IMG/VR virus record: IMGVR_UViG_3300025030_000042
From: a virus
Taxonomy: Duplodnaviria; Caudoviricetes
Length of the DNA: 64,000 nucleotides
Direction: 5' to 3' (one strand)
The notes beneath the pieces are model-generated. The model saw only the letters and a list, made by a program, of their open reading frames with translations. It made no database searches and was not told the DNA's origin. Position numbers and translations under genes: made by a program. Shown here piece by piece: positions 6,503 to 55,361 of the stretch (position 1 is the first letter of the stretch; every line of letters begins with the position of its first letter).

Positions 6503-7415
6503 AAAGTCTCTTTATTTCGTCCATTTCTTTTTTGTAGTTAAAATAAGAAGTTATAAATTTCACATCTCCGCACAATCCATTATAGTTCTTATAATGATTT
6601 TCTAATAGAGATTTAATAAAATTTTGTATTTCAAATTTATTATATTTTACATCCATTTTTCCCATCAGAAAAGAACCTAGTGGTTCTAAAAATTCTGGCG
6701 TAAAAGAGATACTTGGATCAAATTCAAAATTTAACTCTCTTTTAATATCTTCTCTTTCTATTAAATGTTCTTCTATACCGGAACTAATCATATATGGAGT
6801 TAATAATTTTTCCAAACGACCATTTATACAACACAAAAAAACAAATAATCTATCGGCAAACAAGATAGAATCAATTTTTGGATTTTTCTTTAAAAATTCA
6901 AAATAAAATCTATACATTTCAGATCTTAAAACGGAATGTTGACGAGCATGATAAAAATCAAAATAATATAATAATCTTGAAAATATTCTATCGGTTTTTA
7001 AAGGATTTTGTATTTGGTTATTAACCGCCTTAATATAATTCGTTTTAATGGTTAAATCTTTTTTTTGAATGTGATATTTAAAATATTCTCCATCGCAAGA
7101 AATACATTTAGGATCTTGTCTCATGTGCTCCAAACACTTAATAATACCGTCTTTAAAAATAATATCATCATCCGGACACTCTACAATATAATTTGTATTT
7201 ACCATTTGAGCAATAATATTCATTTTGTCAAAATATTTCATAGATCCGAAATAGATATATTCGAATCCAGATGGAACTAAATCTTTATACTCCTCCTTTG
7301 AACTGTCACAAATAATCTTACGACATTCAAAATCAGAATAATATTTAAATATTCTTTTTAAATTATAGTGACGATCGCGGACTGGAACAATAAGAGTTAG
7401 ATCGTTTATTTTCAT
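6489..7415 (-). CDS. GT2-like (TIGR00180-type) glycosyltransferase
   Basis: LTLIVPVRDRH, IICDSS, ECPDDDII. Confidence 0.7.
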   Translation of the reverse strand: MKINDLTLIVPVRDRHYNLKRIFKYYSDFECRKIICDSSKEEYKDLVPSGFEYIYFGSMKYFDKMNIIAQMVNTNYIVECPDDDIIFKDGIIKCLEHMRQDPKCISCDGEYFKYHIQKKDLTIKTNYIKAVNNQIQNPLKTDRIFSRLLYYFDFYHARQHSVLRSEMYRFYFEFLKKNPKIDSILFADRLFVFLCCINGRLEKLLTPYMISSGIEEHLIEREDIKRELNFEFDPSISFTPEFLEPLGSFLMGKMDVKYNKFEIQNFIKSLLENHYKNYNGLCGDVKFITSYFNYKKEMDEIKRLFEEE

Positions 7416-48296: not shown

Positions 48297-48309
48297 AAGT
48301 AAAATGAAA

Positions 48310-48984
48310 TTATAAAGAATTTTTAATCTGTGAAATATGTTCGAGTGAAATATGACCGTGATCAAATTCCCAGTGATGATTTTTACAAAGTCCGATAAGA
48401 TTAGAAATATCATTTATTTCTGATATTAAAGTTTTTGGAGGAAATGAAGATATTGATTTTATATGACACGCATCAATGTGTAAAGTATAATCACATAAAG
48501 CACATTTTAACAAAAGATTATGTTTTTGGGCTATTTTCCGAGCGTGATATCTGACTCTAGAAAAGTGATTACAAGAAAACGATTTTGTTATTTTAATAGT
48601 TTCCAGCGTTAATGAGTTAGTAGGAATATGTTCTTTATCATAACAAGTTTTACAAAGATTAGTTTTTTTATCATTTAGTGGAATAGAACAAATATTACAA
48701 AAGTTAGTAAATGTTTTCACTCTTTTTGGATATTTTGTATTATTAAATATTGCAGAACATTTTTGAGAACAAAAGTTATTTGGAAACTTTTTTATTTCAC
48801 TACGAAGTTTTAAAAATGATTTATAACAGTTTAAACATTCTACTAAAATCTTACTTGAAGCATTTTCTTTTCTATAGAGTTTTGCACAATCGTTGGAACA
48901 AAAATGTTTTTTACTTCTCTCTATTCGACATTTTTGTCTTTGAAAGGATTTAGAACATCTATGACATTTTATTTGAATAAGCAT
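48310..48984 (-). mobile_element. HNH endonuclease with Cys-rich N-terminal repeats, opposite to neighbours
   Basis: CxxCxKSF/FCSxxC repeats; DACHIK...NLIGLCKNHHWEFD; GGAG RBS before MLIQ. Confidence 0.85.
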
Positions 48985-49053
48985 ACGTATTCTCCATTTA
49001 TTATAAGTAGTATTCTCATTGGGATTTGAAACAAATATAGAAGGTAGTATTAA

Positions 49054-49125
49054 GGGGCTCGGGCGGTTCAGTAATCGCGTCGGTCTTATAAACCGAGAAA
49101 CCGTGAGCGACACACGGGAGCCCTA
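49054..49125 (+). tRNA. Non-canonical tRNA-Ile(UAU), no encoded CCA
   Basis: All four stems pair: GGGGCTC/GAGCCCT, GCGG/TCGC, TCGGT/ACCGA with loop CTTATAA, CCGTG/CACGG; loops lack conserved residues. Confidence 0.7.
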
Positions 49126-49144
49126 TATAAAAGAGAAAATAAAA

Positions 49145-49585
49145 ATGACATCAACAACCGAAAAACTTTCGCTTCTGGAAAATCACATTCTCTCAAAATA
49201 TGGAATCAAAGTTGTTTATTCATATAAAGTTAAAACGGATACATATTATCCAGACAAAAAACTTATTGAAATCTGTCCTCGTCAAATAGCAAAACATAAA
49301 CTTTATTCTTTATTACACGAAGCGGGACACATTCTCATACAAACACCATACGCCAAATATGTTCGCAAGTTTCCTTTAAGTCACCAGACAACTTTATACG
49401 GAAAAGATTATCGAATAGATGTTTTACGAGAAGAATATTTTGCTTGGGACAAAGGGTTTGATTTATCAAAGGAGTTAAAACTTGATATCAATGAAGAAAA
49501 ATATTATAAGTATGCCCGAAAGTTTTTATGGGGGTATATTAAATGGTTAATGAATCCTGGTAAAAGATATCAATGGATTACCTAA
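49145..49585 (+). CDS. ImmA/IrrE-like zinc metallopeptidase
   Basis: LLHEAGH, EEYFAW; start trimmed to MTSTT. Confidence 0.65.
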   Translation: MTSTTEKLSLLENHILSKYGIKVVYSYKVKTDTYYPDKKLIEICPRQIAKHKLYSLLHEAGHILIQTPYAKYVRKFPLSHQTTLYGKDYRIDVLREEYFAWDKGFDLSKELKLDINEEKYYKYARKFLWGYIKWLMNPGKRYQWIT

Positions 49586-49782
49586 AAAAAATAAGAGTTG
49601 GAAGTCTGATTACTTGGAAAACCAACGATTTTATTAAAGATTACTTATTTAATACAGGAATTATTGTTTTAAAGACCGAAGGTTATTTTAAAGTTTATTG
49701 GTACAATAGAAAAATAAATAAATCGTATTTTTTACAACATTCATATGGAGCGATTTACAATATTATTGTTTTGTCATATTAA
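49573..49782 (+). CDS. KOW/SH3-like microprotein
   Basis: IRVGSLITW...TGIIVLK...FKVYW. Confidence 0.65.
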   Translation: MDYLKKIRVGSLITWKTNDFIKDYLFNTGIIVLKTEGYFKVYWYNRKINKSYFLQHSYGAIYNIIVLSY

Positions 49783-49822
49783 AAAGTATTTATTATGATG
49801 TCCGCAACGAAAGGAACTTGAA

Positions 49823-50197
49823 ATGATGTCTACTAACGACAAAGAACTTTCGAATGCCGAACTCGAAGCAATCCTTTCCAGTCTTAAAACCTTAAAGGAT
49901 CTTGAAAGATTTGATTTGTCCACAAACGACGAGATCAATCTAAAGTTACTGGATATTGAAAAAGAAATCGCTCTTTATCTAAAGAAGAACTTTTATTCTG
50001 ATCTCTACGTTGGAAAAGATAGTTTGGGGCTTGAACTTTATAATGTTCGTTTTGATCCAACTGTTCCAGGGAAGGGTTTTCGCGGCAGAGCAAAAGATAT
50101 TCGTAATACCACCATCGCTTATGTGTGGTATGATATGAAGTCCAAAGAAATCGTCCACACCCCAGAACAATACTCCTACAATAAACGAATGAACTAA
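49823..50197 (+). CDS. Hypothetical protein
   Basis: AAAGGA RBS. Confidence 0.65.
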   Translation: MMSTNDKELSNAELEAILSSLKTLKDLERFDLSTNDEINLKLLDIEKEIALYLKKNFYSDLYVGKDSLGLELYNVRFDPTVPGKGFRGRAKDIRNTTIAYVWYDMKSKEIVHTPEQYSYNKRMN

Positions 50198-50285
50198 TCT
50201 AAAATACTTTAAAGATTTTTAGATTTTACTTTAGGTATTATTTGTTATATACTATTGTTTTTTATTGTTGCCGCCGATAAACCTC

Positions 50286-50314
50286 TTGACAAAAAGCCGT
50301 TAAACTGTTATAAT
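50286..50314 (+). promoter_or_regulatory. Consensus sigma70 promoter
   Basis: TTGACA-N17-TATAAT with TG extension. Confidence 0.85.
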
Positions 50315-51255: not shown

Positions 51256-51993
51256 ATGCGAATCTTAAAAACTCCATTTACATTTGATATCAAAAAACAT
51301 TTTTCTGAGGAACAACAAAAAGTATTTAACATTTTAACTTCCGTTCCTGGATGTTATATTGCTGGCGGAGCTGCTTTGGCAATGTATGATAATAATCCAG
51401 TGATATTGAAAGATTTTGATGTTTATTGTAATACGAAAACCATTCGTAGAATCGTTTATAATAAAATGTATGATGTATTTGGTTCGCCGTTAAACTATCC
51501 AACTTATCCGGGAAATGGAAGTTATCTTTATAATTATTTAACTTTTTCTACACTTACACAACTTATGTTAAATAAAAGTAAAAGTTTGAAAAGCCTGTTT
51601 CGTTCATTTGATTTTACAGTTTGTTGTTTTGCTACAGATGGTAAATATTACTACTTTACTCCGCAAGCAAAACGCGATCTCATCAAAAGAGAAATCGTTT
51701 GTAATGAAATTACCAGTAATGAATTAAAAACAATATCTCGCTTAAAGCGTTATAAATCAAAAGGATTTCGTTTAAATAATGAAAAGTTCTGGAATACTTT
51801 TAACAAAAAGAAAAGAACTTTTTCTTCTGGAGATATGATTAAATCTCTATCTTTATATCACGACAAACAAAGAATATTGGTTTTAGATAAAGACAAAAAA
51901 GTTTATAAATGTTTTAATATTTATAACAAAAAGATTTATTTTGTTATATCCGATGTTCTTGAATCAAACTACAAAATCGTTAAGACAAAATGA
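51256..51993 (+). CDS. tRNA nucleotidyltransferase/poly(A) polymerase-like nucleotidyltransferase
   Basis: YIAGGA, DFDVY (DxD), FDFTVC. Confidence 0.7.
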   Translation: MRILKTPFTFDIKKHFSEEQQKVFNILTSVPGCYIAGGAALAMYDNNPVILKDFDVYCNTKTIRRIVYNKMYDVFGSPLNYPTYPGNGSYLYNYLTFSTLTQLMLNKSKSLKSLFRSFDFTVCCFATDGKYYYFTPQAKRDLIKREIVCNEITSNELKTISRLKRYKSKGFRLNNEKFWNTFNKKKRTFSSGDMIKSLSLYHDKQRILVLDKDKKVYKCFNIYNKKIYFVISDVLESNYKIVKTK

Positions 51994-52591: not shown

Positions 52592-52874
52592 AGAAGATAA
52601 CGACCGATATCAAAATCAACCTTGGTATATCAAGTTATGGAGACGAAGATATTATCTTTTGATTCCATATTTTACTATTGTTTGTTATCTATATAATATT
52701 TTCATGGTGTCTAAAAACGAAGAACGATTATCTCTTAATAAATGCTGGAAAATCAATATTGGGTTAGCACAAATGAAAATGAAATGGTATTATGATTGGA
52801 ATGAAATGAAAGAGAAATTAGATAAAATAGATAAAATAAAAGATGGACAAAATAGGTTAAATAAAAATGTATAA
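52560..52874 (+). CDS. Hypothetical protein
   Basis: QPWYIKLWRRRYYL. Confidence 0.55.
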   Translation: MTTKLMKKMNKEDNDRYQNQPWYIKLWRRRYYLLIPYFTIVCYLYNIFMVSKNEERLSLNKCWKINIGLAQMKMKWYYDWNEMKEKLDKIDKIKDGQNRLNKNV

Positions 52875-54147
52875 TGCTATTATTGGAAAAATCAAGATCT
52901 ATCCTCACCCTAACGCAGATAGACTAAAAATGGGCGTTATTTGTAATACAACGGTTGTTGTTGGGTTAAATATTCAAGAAAATGATTTAATGATGTTATT
53001 TCCCAGTGATGGACAACTCTCTGAAACTTTTGCCATCTCCAACAATTTAATCAGTTATTCCGATCCGCAAACTGGTGAAAAAAAAGGTGGTTATTTCGCA
53101 AAAAATCGTCGCGTCCGCGCTCAAAAGCTACGAGGCGTTAGTAGTGATGGATTCGCCTGTGAACTTTCACTTTTAAAAAATGCTGGAGTATCTCAAAAAA
53201 CTATTGATTCTTTAAAAAAAGGGGATCAATTTAACGAGTTGGATGATATTTCTATATGTAATAAATATATTACGCCCGCAACAAAACAAGCGTTGGCCCA
53301 TAAGGCAAATCAAGTTAAAAAAACCAATAAAAGATTTCCGGAACACTATGAGACAAAACAGTTACGTTATGAAATCGATAAGATACCTAACTATTCAATA
53401 TTATACATAAATCTCAAAGTCCACGGAACTTCTGCCAGATATAGTTTTGTTCATGAAGAAATCGCCGTTAAACCTCCTTGGTTTAAACGCATCTTTGGCG
53501 CCAAACCAAAAACAAAACTTGAATATCGTCATCAAGTTGGCACTCGTCGAGTCATTCTTGATAACGAAAATGTTATGGATTTTCACGGAAATGTTCAATA
53601 TCGTTACGATTTTATGAAAGATATTTTTCATCTTCTAAAAAAAGGCGAACTTATCTATGGTGAAATCGCTGGATATCAATCTGAAAATGTTTCTATTATG
53701 CCATCGGTTTCAACTTCAACAATAAAAGATAAATCGTTTTCAAAAAAGTATGGTCCTACTATAACCTACAAATACGGCTGTCCTAACGGAACTCATAAGT
53801 TCTTTGTTTATAGAATAGCAATGATAAATGAAGATGGTTACATTATAGATTTACCTTGGTTACAAACAAAGAAAAGAGCAATGGAGTTAGGACTTCAGTG
53901 TGTTCCAGAGTTTGAAGGTCCATTTGTTTACGACGGCAACAAAGAAGAACTTTTAAATAAAGTATTACAATATGTAGACGGTCCGGATCCATTAGATGAA
54001 ACTCATATTAGAGAGGGTGTTGTGGTTCGCATTGAAAATGAAAACGGTGTATCGTTCTTAAAAGAAAAATCTTTTAACTTTAAAGTTTTGGAAGGAATTG
54101 CGAAAGATAATGCCGATTATATTGATTTAGAGGAACAGGAAGGGTAA
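52867..54147 (+). CDS. ATP-dependent RNA ligase (DRB0094-like, N-terminal OB fold)
   Basis: HPNADRL, KLRGVSSDG, KVHGTS, YGEIAG, REGVVVR, KEKSFNF. Confidence 0.88.
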   Translation: MYNAIIGKIKIYPHPNADRLKMGVICNTTVVVGLNIQENDLMMLFPSDGQLSETFAISNNLISYSDPQTGEKKGGYFAKNRRVRAQKLRGVSSDGFACELSLLKNAGVSQKTIDSLKKGDQFNELDDISICNKYITPATKQALAHKANQVKKTNKRFPEHYETKQLRYEIDKIPNYSILYINLKVHGTSARYSFVHEEIAVKPPWFKRIFGAKPKTKLEYRHQVGTRRVILDNENVMDFHGNVQYRYDFMKDIFHLLKKGELIYGEIAGYQSENVSIMPSVSTSTIKDKSFSKKYGPTITYKYGCPNGTHKFFVYRIAMINEDGYIIDLPWLQTKKRAMELGLQCVPEFEGPFVYDGNKEELLNKVLQYVDGPDPLDETHIREGVVVRIENENGVSFLKEKSFNFKVLEGIAKDNADYIDLEEQEG

Positions 54148-55083: not shown

Positions 55084-55124
55084 TAAAATCATTTACTTCT
55101 TTTGTGTCCGACAACCTCATTTTA

Positions 55125-55270
55125 TGTGTCTGACAGTTGGCCATGGCAGCCAGTATATCACACGCGCCTTTTTGGCGCCGGCGTCCTTCGGCGTCTCCAC
55201 GGGCTGCACAGACGCCTTCCGGACGACGCTGGAGAACATTCATCAAGTCAGCTCTCCATCGCCGTCATAC
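55125..55270. other. Short GC-rich island with a long hairpin
   Basis: GGCGTC..GACGCC stem nested in CCGGCGTCC..GGACGACGCTGG within AT-rich DNA. Confidence 0.6.
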
Positions 55271-55361
55271 AATAAAATATCTCTCTCGATAACGCCAATA
55301 TCGATCAATAACATTGCGAATGTTATTGAAAAGAAAAAGCGTTATTATTATTAAAAAGATC

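Follow-up and report, generated by a model that had tools for sequence, protein, structure and literature searches.

The window analysed here is a 64,000-nt stretch of DNA from a virus of the Caudoviricetes (IMG/VR record IMGVR_UViG_3300025030_000042). On its + strand, positions 49054..49125 hold a 72-nt element which, judged by its sequence, its minimum free energy (MFE) fold, a match to the Rfam tRNA family and a call by ARAGORN at relaxed thresholds, is a real transfer RNA (tRNA) family gene with the anticodon UAU (49087-49089), overlooked by standard annotation. Reading along the + strand, the element consists of a 7-bp acceptor stem (49054-60 paired with 49118-24; six Watson-Crick pairs plus G1.U72), G8 and G9 (49061-62), a D arm (49063-78) with the 4-bp stem GCGG/UCGC that includes G13.U22 and the D-loop UUCAGUAA, G26 (49079), an anticodon arm (49080-96) with a 5-bp stem and the loop CUUAUAA (49085-91; U33, UAU, A37 and A38), the variable loop GAAA (49097-100), and a T arm (49101-17) with a 5-bp stem and the T-loop AGCGACA (49106-12; A54 G55 C56 G57 A58 C59 A60). 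The discriminator A73 (49125) is followed directly by TAT, and no CCA is encoded. The first-pass annotation of this DNA had described a 7/4/5/5-bp cloverleaf with a canonical anticodon loop, G8, a D-loop lacking A14, the T-loop AGCGACA and a missing CCA, and the sequence bears out each of these features. Its description of the D-loop as lacking GG is correct in that there is no GG pair, but the single G of this loop aligns with G19 in the Rfam model.

All stem positions are paired (21/21), and the stem lengths of 7/4/5/5, the spacers of 2/1/0 and the 7-nt anticodon loop conform to tRNA geometry. Both the MFE and the centroid folds are the cloverleaf (-29.8 kcal/mol, z -2.8); in the MFE fold the D arm gains U14-A21 and U15-A20, yielding a 6-bp stem with the 4-nt loop CAGU, and in this model that is probably the form the D arm takes. 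The identity-type features of an AUA decoder (U33, UAU, A37, A38 and A73) are all present. Among near-universal tertiary bases the element has G19, C56 and A58 but lacks U8, A14, G18, U54 and U55; as far as the primary sequence can tell, the predicted elbow is altered, not absent, with G19, C56, R57 and A58 remaining. We also considered a tRNA on the minus strand and rejected it, as the reverse fold is weaker, its spacers are not tRNA-like and both G.U pairs become A.C mismatches. Because the G.U pairs and the spacers suit the + strand only, the structure, if it matters, is that of a + strand RNA.

When both strands of the window were scanned for perfect 7/4/5/5 cloverleaves with tRNA spacers, the element was the only one found, and scanning 40 block-shuffled windows and 20,000 shuffled versions of the element yielded no perfect cloverleaf. 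The element is intergenic, has about 60% G+C and is the second most G+C-rich 70-nt stretch in the AT-rich first 56 kb of the window (0.61 versus a mean of 0.32). The expectation that standard tRNA finders may miss it was borne out by both programs: ARAGORN at default settings predicted no tRNA anywhere in the window, and Rfam with normal filters gave no tRNA match on either the 64-kb window or a 401-nt segment. The ARAGORN and covariance-model comparison that had been suggested as a check gave a positive answer at relaxed settings only. ARAGORN at thresholds of 95% or 90% called the element, and the element alone in the window, as tRNA-Ile(tat); false calls arose in shuffled windows at a rate of 1 per 40 windows at the 95% setting and about 0.5 per window at the 90% setting, making the relaxed call weak evidence and the 90% call insignificant by itself. 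With lax filters, an 81-nt input matched the Rfam tRNA model RF00005 at 35.3 bits (E 1.4e-6; gathering cut-off 29 bits) over its full length (model positions 1-71) and on the + strand only, and the misses on longer inputs are filter losses because the primary-sequence signature is missing. The alignment retains G10-C25, C11-G24, G19, U20, A21, C32, U33, A37 and A38, and in the T arm and 3′ end G53-C61, C56, G57 (R57), A58 and A73. The cloverleaf might also be an accident of sequence, whether coding or not: the whole scan took in very many windows, in which some random cloverleaves are expected, and false calls do arise at relaxed ARAGORN thresholds. Against this stand the empty shuffles, the Rfam E-value, the location of the element in a G+C island and an adjoining endonuclease gene whose family is tied to tRNA clusters, and we regard chance as excluded for practical purposes.

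Two divergent genes flank the element, which lies in the gap of 160 nt that separates them. One of these, on the minus strand at 48310..48984, encodes a 224-aa homing-type HNH endonuclease (Pfam HNH_2, 5.8e-9) behind a GGAGA ribosome-binding site, and its start lies 70 nt from the element in divergent orientation. Relatives of this protein share 32-46% identity with it. On the contigs of two of the three closest relatives (L084-L088), tRNAs called at default settings directly adjoin the HNH gene on the opposite strand; no tRNA was called on the 1.9-kb contig of the third (L089). A profile-based scan of IMG/VR yielded 79 loci with HNH relatives (L090-L168), and with a 2.5-kb flank on each side, 70 of the 79 contained at least one ARAGORN-default tRNA, amounting to 358 tRNAs in 411 kb, with the endonuclease usually antisense to the tRNAs. 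By comparison, control loci from the same collection, consisting of 34 chance pattern matches from IMG/VR, had tRNAs in 3 of 34 cases (3 tRNAs in 292 kb; Fisher p 2e-16); many of the 79 loci are near-duplicates and the p-value overstates their independence, yet the effect is very large and extends over many distinct contigs. This HNH_2 family thus lives within phage tRNA clusters and is a strong marker of them, as SegB of T4 and the heg genes of T5 also sit in phage tRNA clusters. The element, located 70 nt from the start of a member of this tRNA-cluster endonuclease family, is most simply a tRNA gene; it is the only candidate tRNA within 2.5 kb of that member.

UAU anticodons had been described as rare, which holds for bacteria but not for phage tRNA clusters, where ARAGORN called tRNA-Ile(tat) 12 times in the 79 loci. 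Such a gene abuts the HNH gene in L091, L094 and L133, and lies divergently upstream of it, as the element does, in L101 and L165. The bodies of these UAU tRNAs vary widely, those of L095 and L101 being canonical (71 and 56 bits). The UAU tRNAs near HNH genes in L095, L101, L162, L165 and L108/L114 resemble the element in U33, UAU, A37 and A73 and in their antisense or divergent placement beside the HNH gene. G8 G9 is found in L165, L108 and L114, and L165 additionally has a GCGG/UCGC D stem and a very small D-loop; the filtered Rfam search missed the UAU tRNAs of L108/L114 and L165 as well. Unlike the element, these tRNAs have UUC-type T-loops, mostly carry GG in the D-loop and are called by ARAGORN without relaxed thresholds; with Rfam, four of them reach 44-71 bits versus 35.3 bits for the element. 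The likeness is limited to short stems and falls short of demonstrating homology. We also noted that L094:3127-3212, L091:3088-3179 and L133:3086-3179 (all on the minus strand) are 86-94-nt tRNA-Ile(UAU) genes with a long extra arm, and that the extra-arm loop in L094 displays GAU, the anticodon of ordinary tRNA-Ile. The element has no such arm; its variable loop is GAAA, and the trinucleotide GAU is absent from the whole 72-nt gene.

Many assemblies from groundwater and soil contain the same phage DNA, among them a 210,922-bp NCBI record. Together with the 64-kb window, protein look-ups covered about 57 kb beyond it, leaving about 90 kb of the 211 kb unseen; the DNA beyond the window encodes gp32-like, RecA/UvsX-like, DnaB-like and other replication genes. 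In these additional 57 kb, ARAGORN and Rfam found three further tRNA genes, all on the + strand. The first (L008:5842-5911, 43.4 bits) is Ile(GAU)-like and has C37 and a short anticodon stem of 3 bp; the second (L047:3646-3719, 47.0 bits) is 72 nt long, with 6 or 8 nt in its anticodon loop; and the third (L047:3723-3807, 39.9 bits) is an Asn(GUU) gene of 85 nt whose variable arm is long. All three have normal GG-containing D-loops and UUC-type T-loops, the altered elbow being confined to the element, and the host therefore uses ordinary tRNA architecture.

For the demand side, ATA accounts for 414 of 1076 Ile codons (38%) in the long open reading frames (ORFs) of the window, or 32 per 1000 codons. 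By block, ATA occurs at 9 per 1000 codons in a GC-rich early-like island of small genes, 19 in the block of the element, and 32-36 in the glycan and replication genes; this comparison, drawn from the window, L008 and L046, is confounded with G+C content. The pattern fits a supply-and-demand role for the element, and the argument that an AUA decoder would serve ATA-using phage genes, for which AUA usage per block had been named as a check, fits these counts.

Several known RNAs bear on whether such a body could function. In Mycoplasma mobile and in a tilS deletion strain of Bacillus subtilis, a tRNA-Ile(UAU) decodes AUA (PMC3575796, PMC3919564). The tRNA-Ile2(UAU) from M. mobile and the B. subtilis suppressor tRNA are like the element in that UAU reads AUA without lysidine and in having A37; unlike the element they have canonical cores, and the M. 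mobile tRNA needs an adapted isoleucyl-tRNA synthetase (IleRS) and ribosome. Among phages, the T4 tRNA-Ile(CAU) beside segB and the T5 tRNA-Ile2(CAU) beside hegA are likewise AUA decoders adjoining a homing endonuclease gene, but they differ in their CAU anticodon (the T4 record gives CAU for tRNA-Ile, and the T5 record contains no UAU tRNA), in their need for host TilS, in their canonical loops and in their placement in multi-tRNA clusters, and the T4 tRNA-Ile scores 53.9 bits. Non-canonical bacterial or phage tRNAs with UAU have also been described as allo-tRNA(UAU) (PMC5389517); membership in that group was rejected, given the 7/5 body and 4-nt variable loop of the element versus the 8/4 or 9/3 bodies, long variable arm and serine-tRNA-like character of allo-tRNAs (PMC5389517).

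The D arm has a parallel in tRNA-Sec, which is characterised by a 6-bp D stem and 4-nt loop. It shares with the element this stem and loop (CGGU in selC, CAGU as predicted here), the lack of U8-A14 and 15-48 contacts, G19-C56 with U20, and C16 and C59 as in E. coli tRNA-Sec. In the Aquifex aeolicus tRNA-Sec structure, two extra D-stem pairs replace U8-A14 and R15-Y48, and the D-loop still contacts the T-loop by way of a U20:G19:C56 triple together with G18:U55 and U16:U59 (PMC3711452); in E. coli tRNA-Sec, C16 contacts C59 (PMC7609411). In the E. coli selC sequence the linker is GU and the D stem of 6 bp closes the loop CGGU; the element carries C16, G19, U20, C56 and C59. It is not itself a tRNA-Sec, having a 7/5 body, a 4-nt variable loop and UAU versus an 8/5 or 9/4 body (13 bp), a long variable arm and UCA, and the T-loop of tRNA-Sec is a normal T-Psi-C loop where that of the element begins with A54 G55. 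A second parallel is Desulfitobacterium hafniense tRNA-Pyl, which also has a 7/5 body and G8 and is without G18, G19 and T-Psi-C; even so, the usual elongation factor and ribosome can use it (PMC7609411). It differs from the element, which is not a tRNA-Pyl, in its single linker base, 6-bp anticodon stem, 3-nt variable loop, CUA anticodon and dedicated synthetase. By analogy with these cases, a folded, usable L-shape seems plausible for the element.

The leading reading, to which we give about an even chance, is that the element works as a tRNA-Ile for AUA, its elbow being non-canonical and in part like that of tRNA-Sec. In favour of decoding are the Ile-type anticodon loop, A73, the AUA load, the real UAU tRNAs found beside the same endonuclease family and the structural parallels just described. 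Under this scheme the element would be transcribed on the + strand together with the downstream genes, cut by RNase P at G1 and by an RNase Z-type activity after A73, and given its CCA by the host enzyme. IleRS would then charge it through identity-type features, namely the CUUAUAA loop with A37 and A38, and A73, and the charged tRNA would supply AUA decoding for the phage glycan and replication genes (32-36 AUA per 1000 codons). In its tertiary structure, the 6-bp D stem with its 4-nt CAGU loop would stand in for the U8-A14 and 15-48 contacts, as in tRNA-Sec, and the D-loop would meet the unusual T-loop through G19-C56. A stronger form of the proposal is that an elongator tRNA works in ordinary bacterial translation without U8, A14, G18, T54 and Psi55, combining a 7/5 body with a short variable loop, a tRNA-Sec-type D arm and an A54-G55 T-loop; we put this forward tentatively, as a possibility clearly behind that of a working tRNA-Ile.

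A number of observations weigh against a working AUA decoder. The RF00005 score partly restates the structure that first drew notice and is not fully independent of it; it is the lowest among the four tRNA-family genes of the phage (the others score 39.9-47.0), and it falls below the scores of T4 tRNAs (48.8-75.4 bits) and of canonical phage tRNA-Ile(UAU) (44-71). In the same alignment, U8 is replaced by G, A14 by U, G18 by A, U54 by A, U55 by G and Y60 by A, and a T-Psi-C-type T-loop is retained by the UAU tRNAs found near HNH relatives in other loci, none of which has AGCGACA. IleRS of the E. coli type charges UAU tRNAs poorly, and on E. coli ribosomes such a tRNA also reads AUG (PMC3575796); the element is also without an extra GAU-bearing arm like that of L094. 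As to expression, the terminator and promoter scan found no terminator after the element, and the sole upstream sigma-70-like match, if used, would start transcription within the acceptor stem. This match, TTGAAA-16-TATTAA (49026..49053, + strand), was read from the sequence, is weak, and adjoins G1 with its last base; the promoter scan left it unlisted, the second hexamer being without T at the last position. Read-through from upstream + strand genes is an alternative to this weak promoter as the source of transcripts. Finally, no homologue of the element was found in the collections searched, and hence no covariation, the assemblies being about 100% identical.

Downstream, the second gene flanking the gap is a + strand ORF of 146 aa at 49145..49585 with a HEAGH motif and a match to PHROG 87 metallo-protease (6.7e-6). 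Its start lies 20 nt past the discriminator, and it is probably co-transcribed with the element. Public gene calls for this ORF disagree, some starting at TTG 49019 (188 aa, running across the element) and others at ATG 49145 (146 aa). We rejected a coding N-terminal extension from TTG 49019, which has no ribosome-binding site and a G+C content of 60% unlike local coding DNA, and the short form suits composition and structure better than the 188-aa form. This arrangement raises the idea of a cis-acting leader or punctuation element, in which an RNase P or RNase Z cut sets the 5′ end of the mRNA for the 146-aa ORF or, in a variant with transcription starting at TTGAAA-16-TATTAA, the region forms a set of hairpins in the 5′ untranslated region. 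The 20-nt distance to the start codon with no terminator between, the promoter-like match abutting G1 and the inclusion of the region in the ORF by some gene callers are all in keeping with a leader. The layout is, however, identical to that of tRNA genes in operons, the promoter match is weak and was not called by the scan, and a leader would not account for the Ile-type anticodon loop, A73 or the association of the HNH family with tRNA clusters; we judge it very unlikely.

Farther downstream of the element are small ORFs without assigned function, and upstream of the element are genes for a MoxR-type ATPase and a DUF2201/VWA protein. Two + strand genes lie 2-4 kb downstream: a nucleotidyltransferase-like (NTase-like) gene at 51256-51993, with a PHROG nucleotidyltransferase match and a precomputed Gad2 family match, and an Rnl2-type RNA ligase gene at 52867-54147 (Pfam RNA_ligase 2e-12), the pair matching PHROG 1614 and PHROG 968. 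The NTase-like gene lies 0.9 kb upstream of the ligase gene and resembles the ligase-associated NTase pairs of jumbo-phage RNA repair (described in PMC7824862), and from its sequence the pair is possibly an RNA-repair pair. A PDB sequence search with the NTase-like protein, the RNA ligase and the 146-aa ORF gave no match. Beyond these genes, 55112-55275 is the top G+C island of the AT-rich part of the window (0.71); it is intergenic, with a multi-branched fold (z -2.7), and matched no Rfam family even with lax filters.

These neighbours are relevant to the rival view that the element is a non-decoding tRNA-like RNA serving as a decoy or sponge, whose acceptor and Ile-type anticodon arms would lure a tRNA-binding factor, such as IleRS, a modification enzyme, or a host anticodon nuclease or other defence protein aimed at tRNAs, while its altered elbow would exclude it from normal tRNA traffic. 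The bases replaced are those of the elbow used by the standard machinery, the anticodon arm is canonical, and four of the four tRNA-family genes seen in the phage deviate in some way. The block of small unknown genes together with the NTase-like and RNA ligase genes suggests pressure from RNA-cleaving defences (PMC7824862), and the use of phage tRNAs against defences that target tRNAs is known (PMC10264068, PMC11555353). T4 and T5 themselves encode tRNA-like stable RNAs of unknown function beside tRNA genes: T5 RNA1-3 and the T4 species 1 and 2 RNAs are, like the element, tRNA-sized, have degenerate features and lie beside tRNA and homing-endonuclease genes, although T5 RNA3 has an incomplete cloverleaf and an encoded CCA where the cloverleaf of the element is perfect and its anticodon loop canonical. 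On the other hand, the analysis identified no defence system that targets tRNA-Ile, the phage tRNAs published as counter-defences do decode and are altered in the anticodon loop and not the elbow (PMC10264068), heavy AUA use constitutes a direct need for decoding, and tRNA-Sec and tRNA-Pyl show that such cores are usable in translation (PMC7609411). We consider a decoy or sponge rather unlikely, and sequence cannot by itself settle between a decoder and a non-decoding tRNA-like RNA.

Searches for relatives of the element returned the phage itself or chance matches. An exact 32-nt piece of the element had no match in IMG/VR; a pattern with the D-, anticodon and T-loops fixed and the stems free found nothing in IMG/VR or in genome contigs and only the phage itself in metagenome contigs; and a looser pattern of anticodon loop and T-loop gave 34 matches in IMG/VR, none with paired stems and all thus attributable to chance. 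The 146-aa ORF had no homologue but itself, blastn against cultured phages gave nothing significant, and the DUF2201 and RecA-like proteins are at most 30% identical to those of cultured phages, so that there are no close relatives to compare. All assemblies with the locus are 99.9-100% identical, with no single-nucleotide polymorphism in or near the element. Among the sequencing runs listed as containing the stretch, none was an RNA run, and four runs labelled as metatranscriptomes from the same studies had nothing on 48300-50300, which says nothing either way about expression. Separately, canonical-looking UAU tRNA genes of Xanthomonadales-type bacteria (Arenimonas, Rhodanobacter and Luteimonas; L053:1063-1138, L061:2752-2826 and L079 near 7167-7183) contain the exact 17-nt anticodon arm of the element and show no likeness to it beyond that arm; ARAGORN names tRNA-Ile(UAU) in two of the three, and at L079 calls only an unassigned 'ca' gene at 7210-7283. 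A phage attachment site (attP) or host tRNA fragment was rejected, the element being complete, non-canonical and unmatched in genomes.

These results also touch on the possibility that the element is a relic or hitch-hiker, a former tRNA-Ile carried or stranded by the HNH mobile element that lost its function through loop changes and persists only through the clonality of the phage population sampled. Its covariance-model score is the lowest among the tRNA genes of the phage, it is solitary instead of clustered and lies beside a mobile endonuclease gene, and identical assemblies give no sign of conservation. Yet changes at about nine conserved loop positions stand beside a full set of 21 intact stem pairs, and random decay should also strike the 42 stem bases; since the deviations fall in loops only and break no stem pair, neutral decay would rarely yield such an element. 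Moreover, several of the changes come in two-sided sets (8/14, 15/48, 18/55 and 16/59), U14-A21 and U15-A20 make new pairs, and high G+C is upheld within AT-rich DNA. Decay is thus unlikely, and we rank it behind a decoy and well behind a working AUA-reading tRNA-Ile.

The loci retrieved for the HNH family contained other unusual tRNA-like genes. A 75-nt gene in L108 and L114 (2336-2410 in each, minus strand) scores 35.5 bits as an Rfam tRNA and is missed by ARAGORN; it lies 91 nt upstream of an HNH relative, behind a TTGACA-17-TATAAT promoter, and has a UCU (Arg AGA) anticodon arm directly after the acceptor strand, with a GG-containing segment later. ARAGORN assigned a two-base 'tg' anticodon to tRNAs at L084:2798-2870 and L090:2298-2370 (both minus strand), which have a 6-nt loop containing UUG. 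In an unrelated phage of 43% G+C, such 'tg' tRNAs turn up repeatedly a short way upstream of HNH relatives, and they occur also in the phage studied here (the 72-nt gene at L047:3646-3719), which suggests a conserved short-loop tRNA type and not damage. A default-called tRNA-Asp(GUC) with a perfect cloverleaf at L084:213-286 (minus strand) has the T-loop AUCGUAC, in which the usual U54 and A58 have changed places to give A54 and U58.

The element adds to a pattern in the loci retrieved for this analysis, where phage tRNAs for the rare codons AUA and AGA depart unusually often from the canonical form and escape standard annotation. Default ARAGORN settings and filtered Rfam searches under-count phage tRNAs, and the HNH family can usefully point to tRNA genes that are hidden. 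If the element is instead a decoy, it would represent a new kind of phage counter-defence RNA. If it is a working tRNA, the 'universal' elbow bases of bacterial elongator tRNAs would be replaceable wholesale on an otherwise standard class I body, and elongators of this design would make up a structural class new among decoding tRNAs. The altered elbow of the element might then hide it from host enzymes that recognise, modify or cleave standard elbows, while the AUA decoding that it supplies would not depend on TilS.

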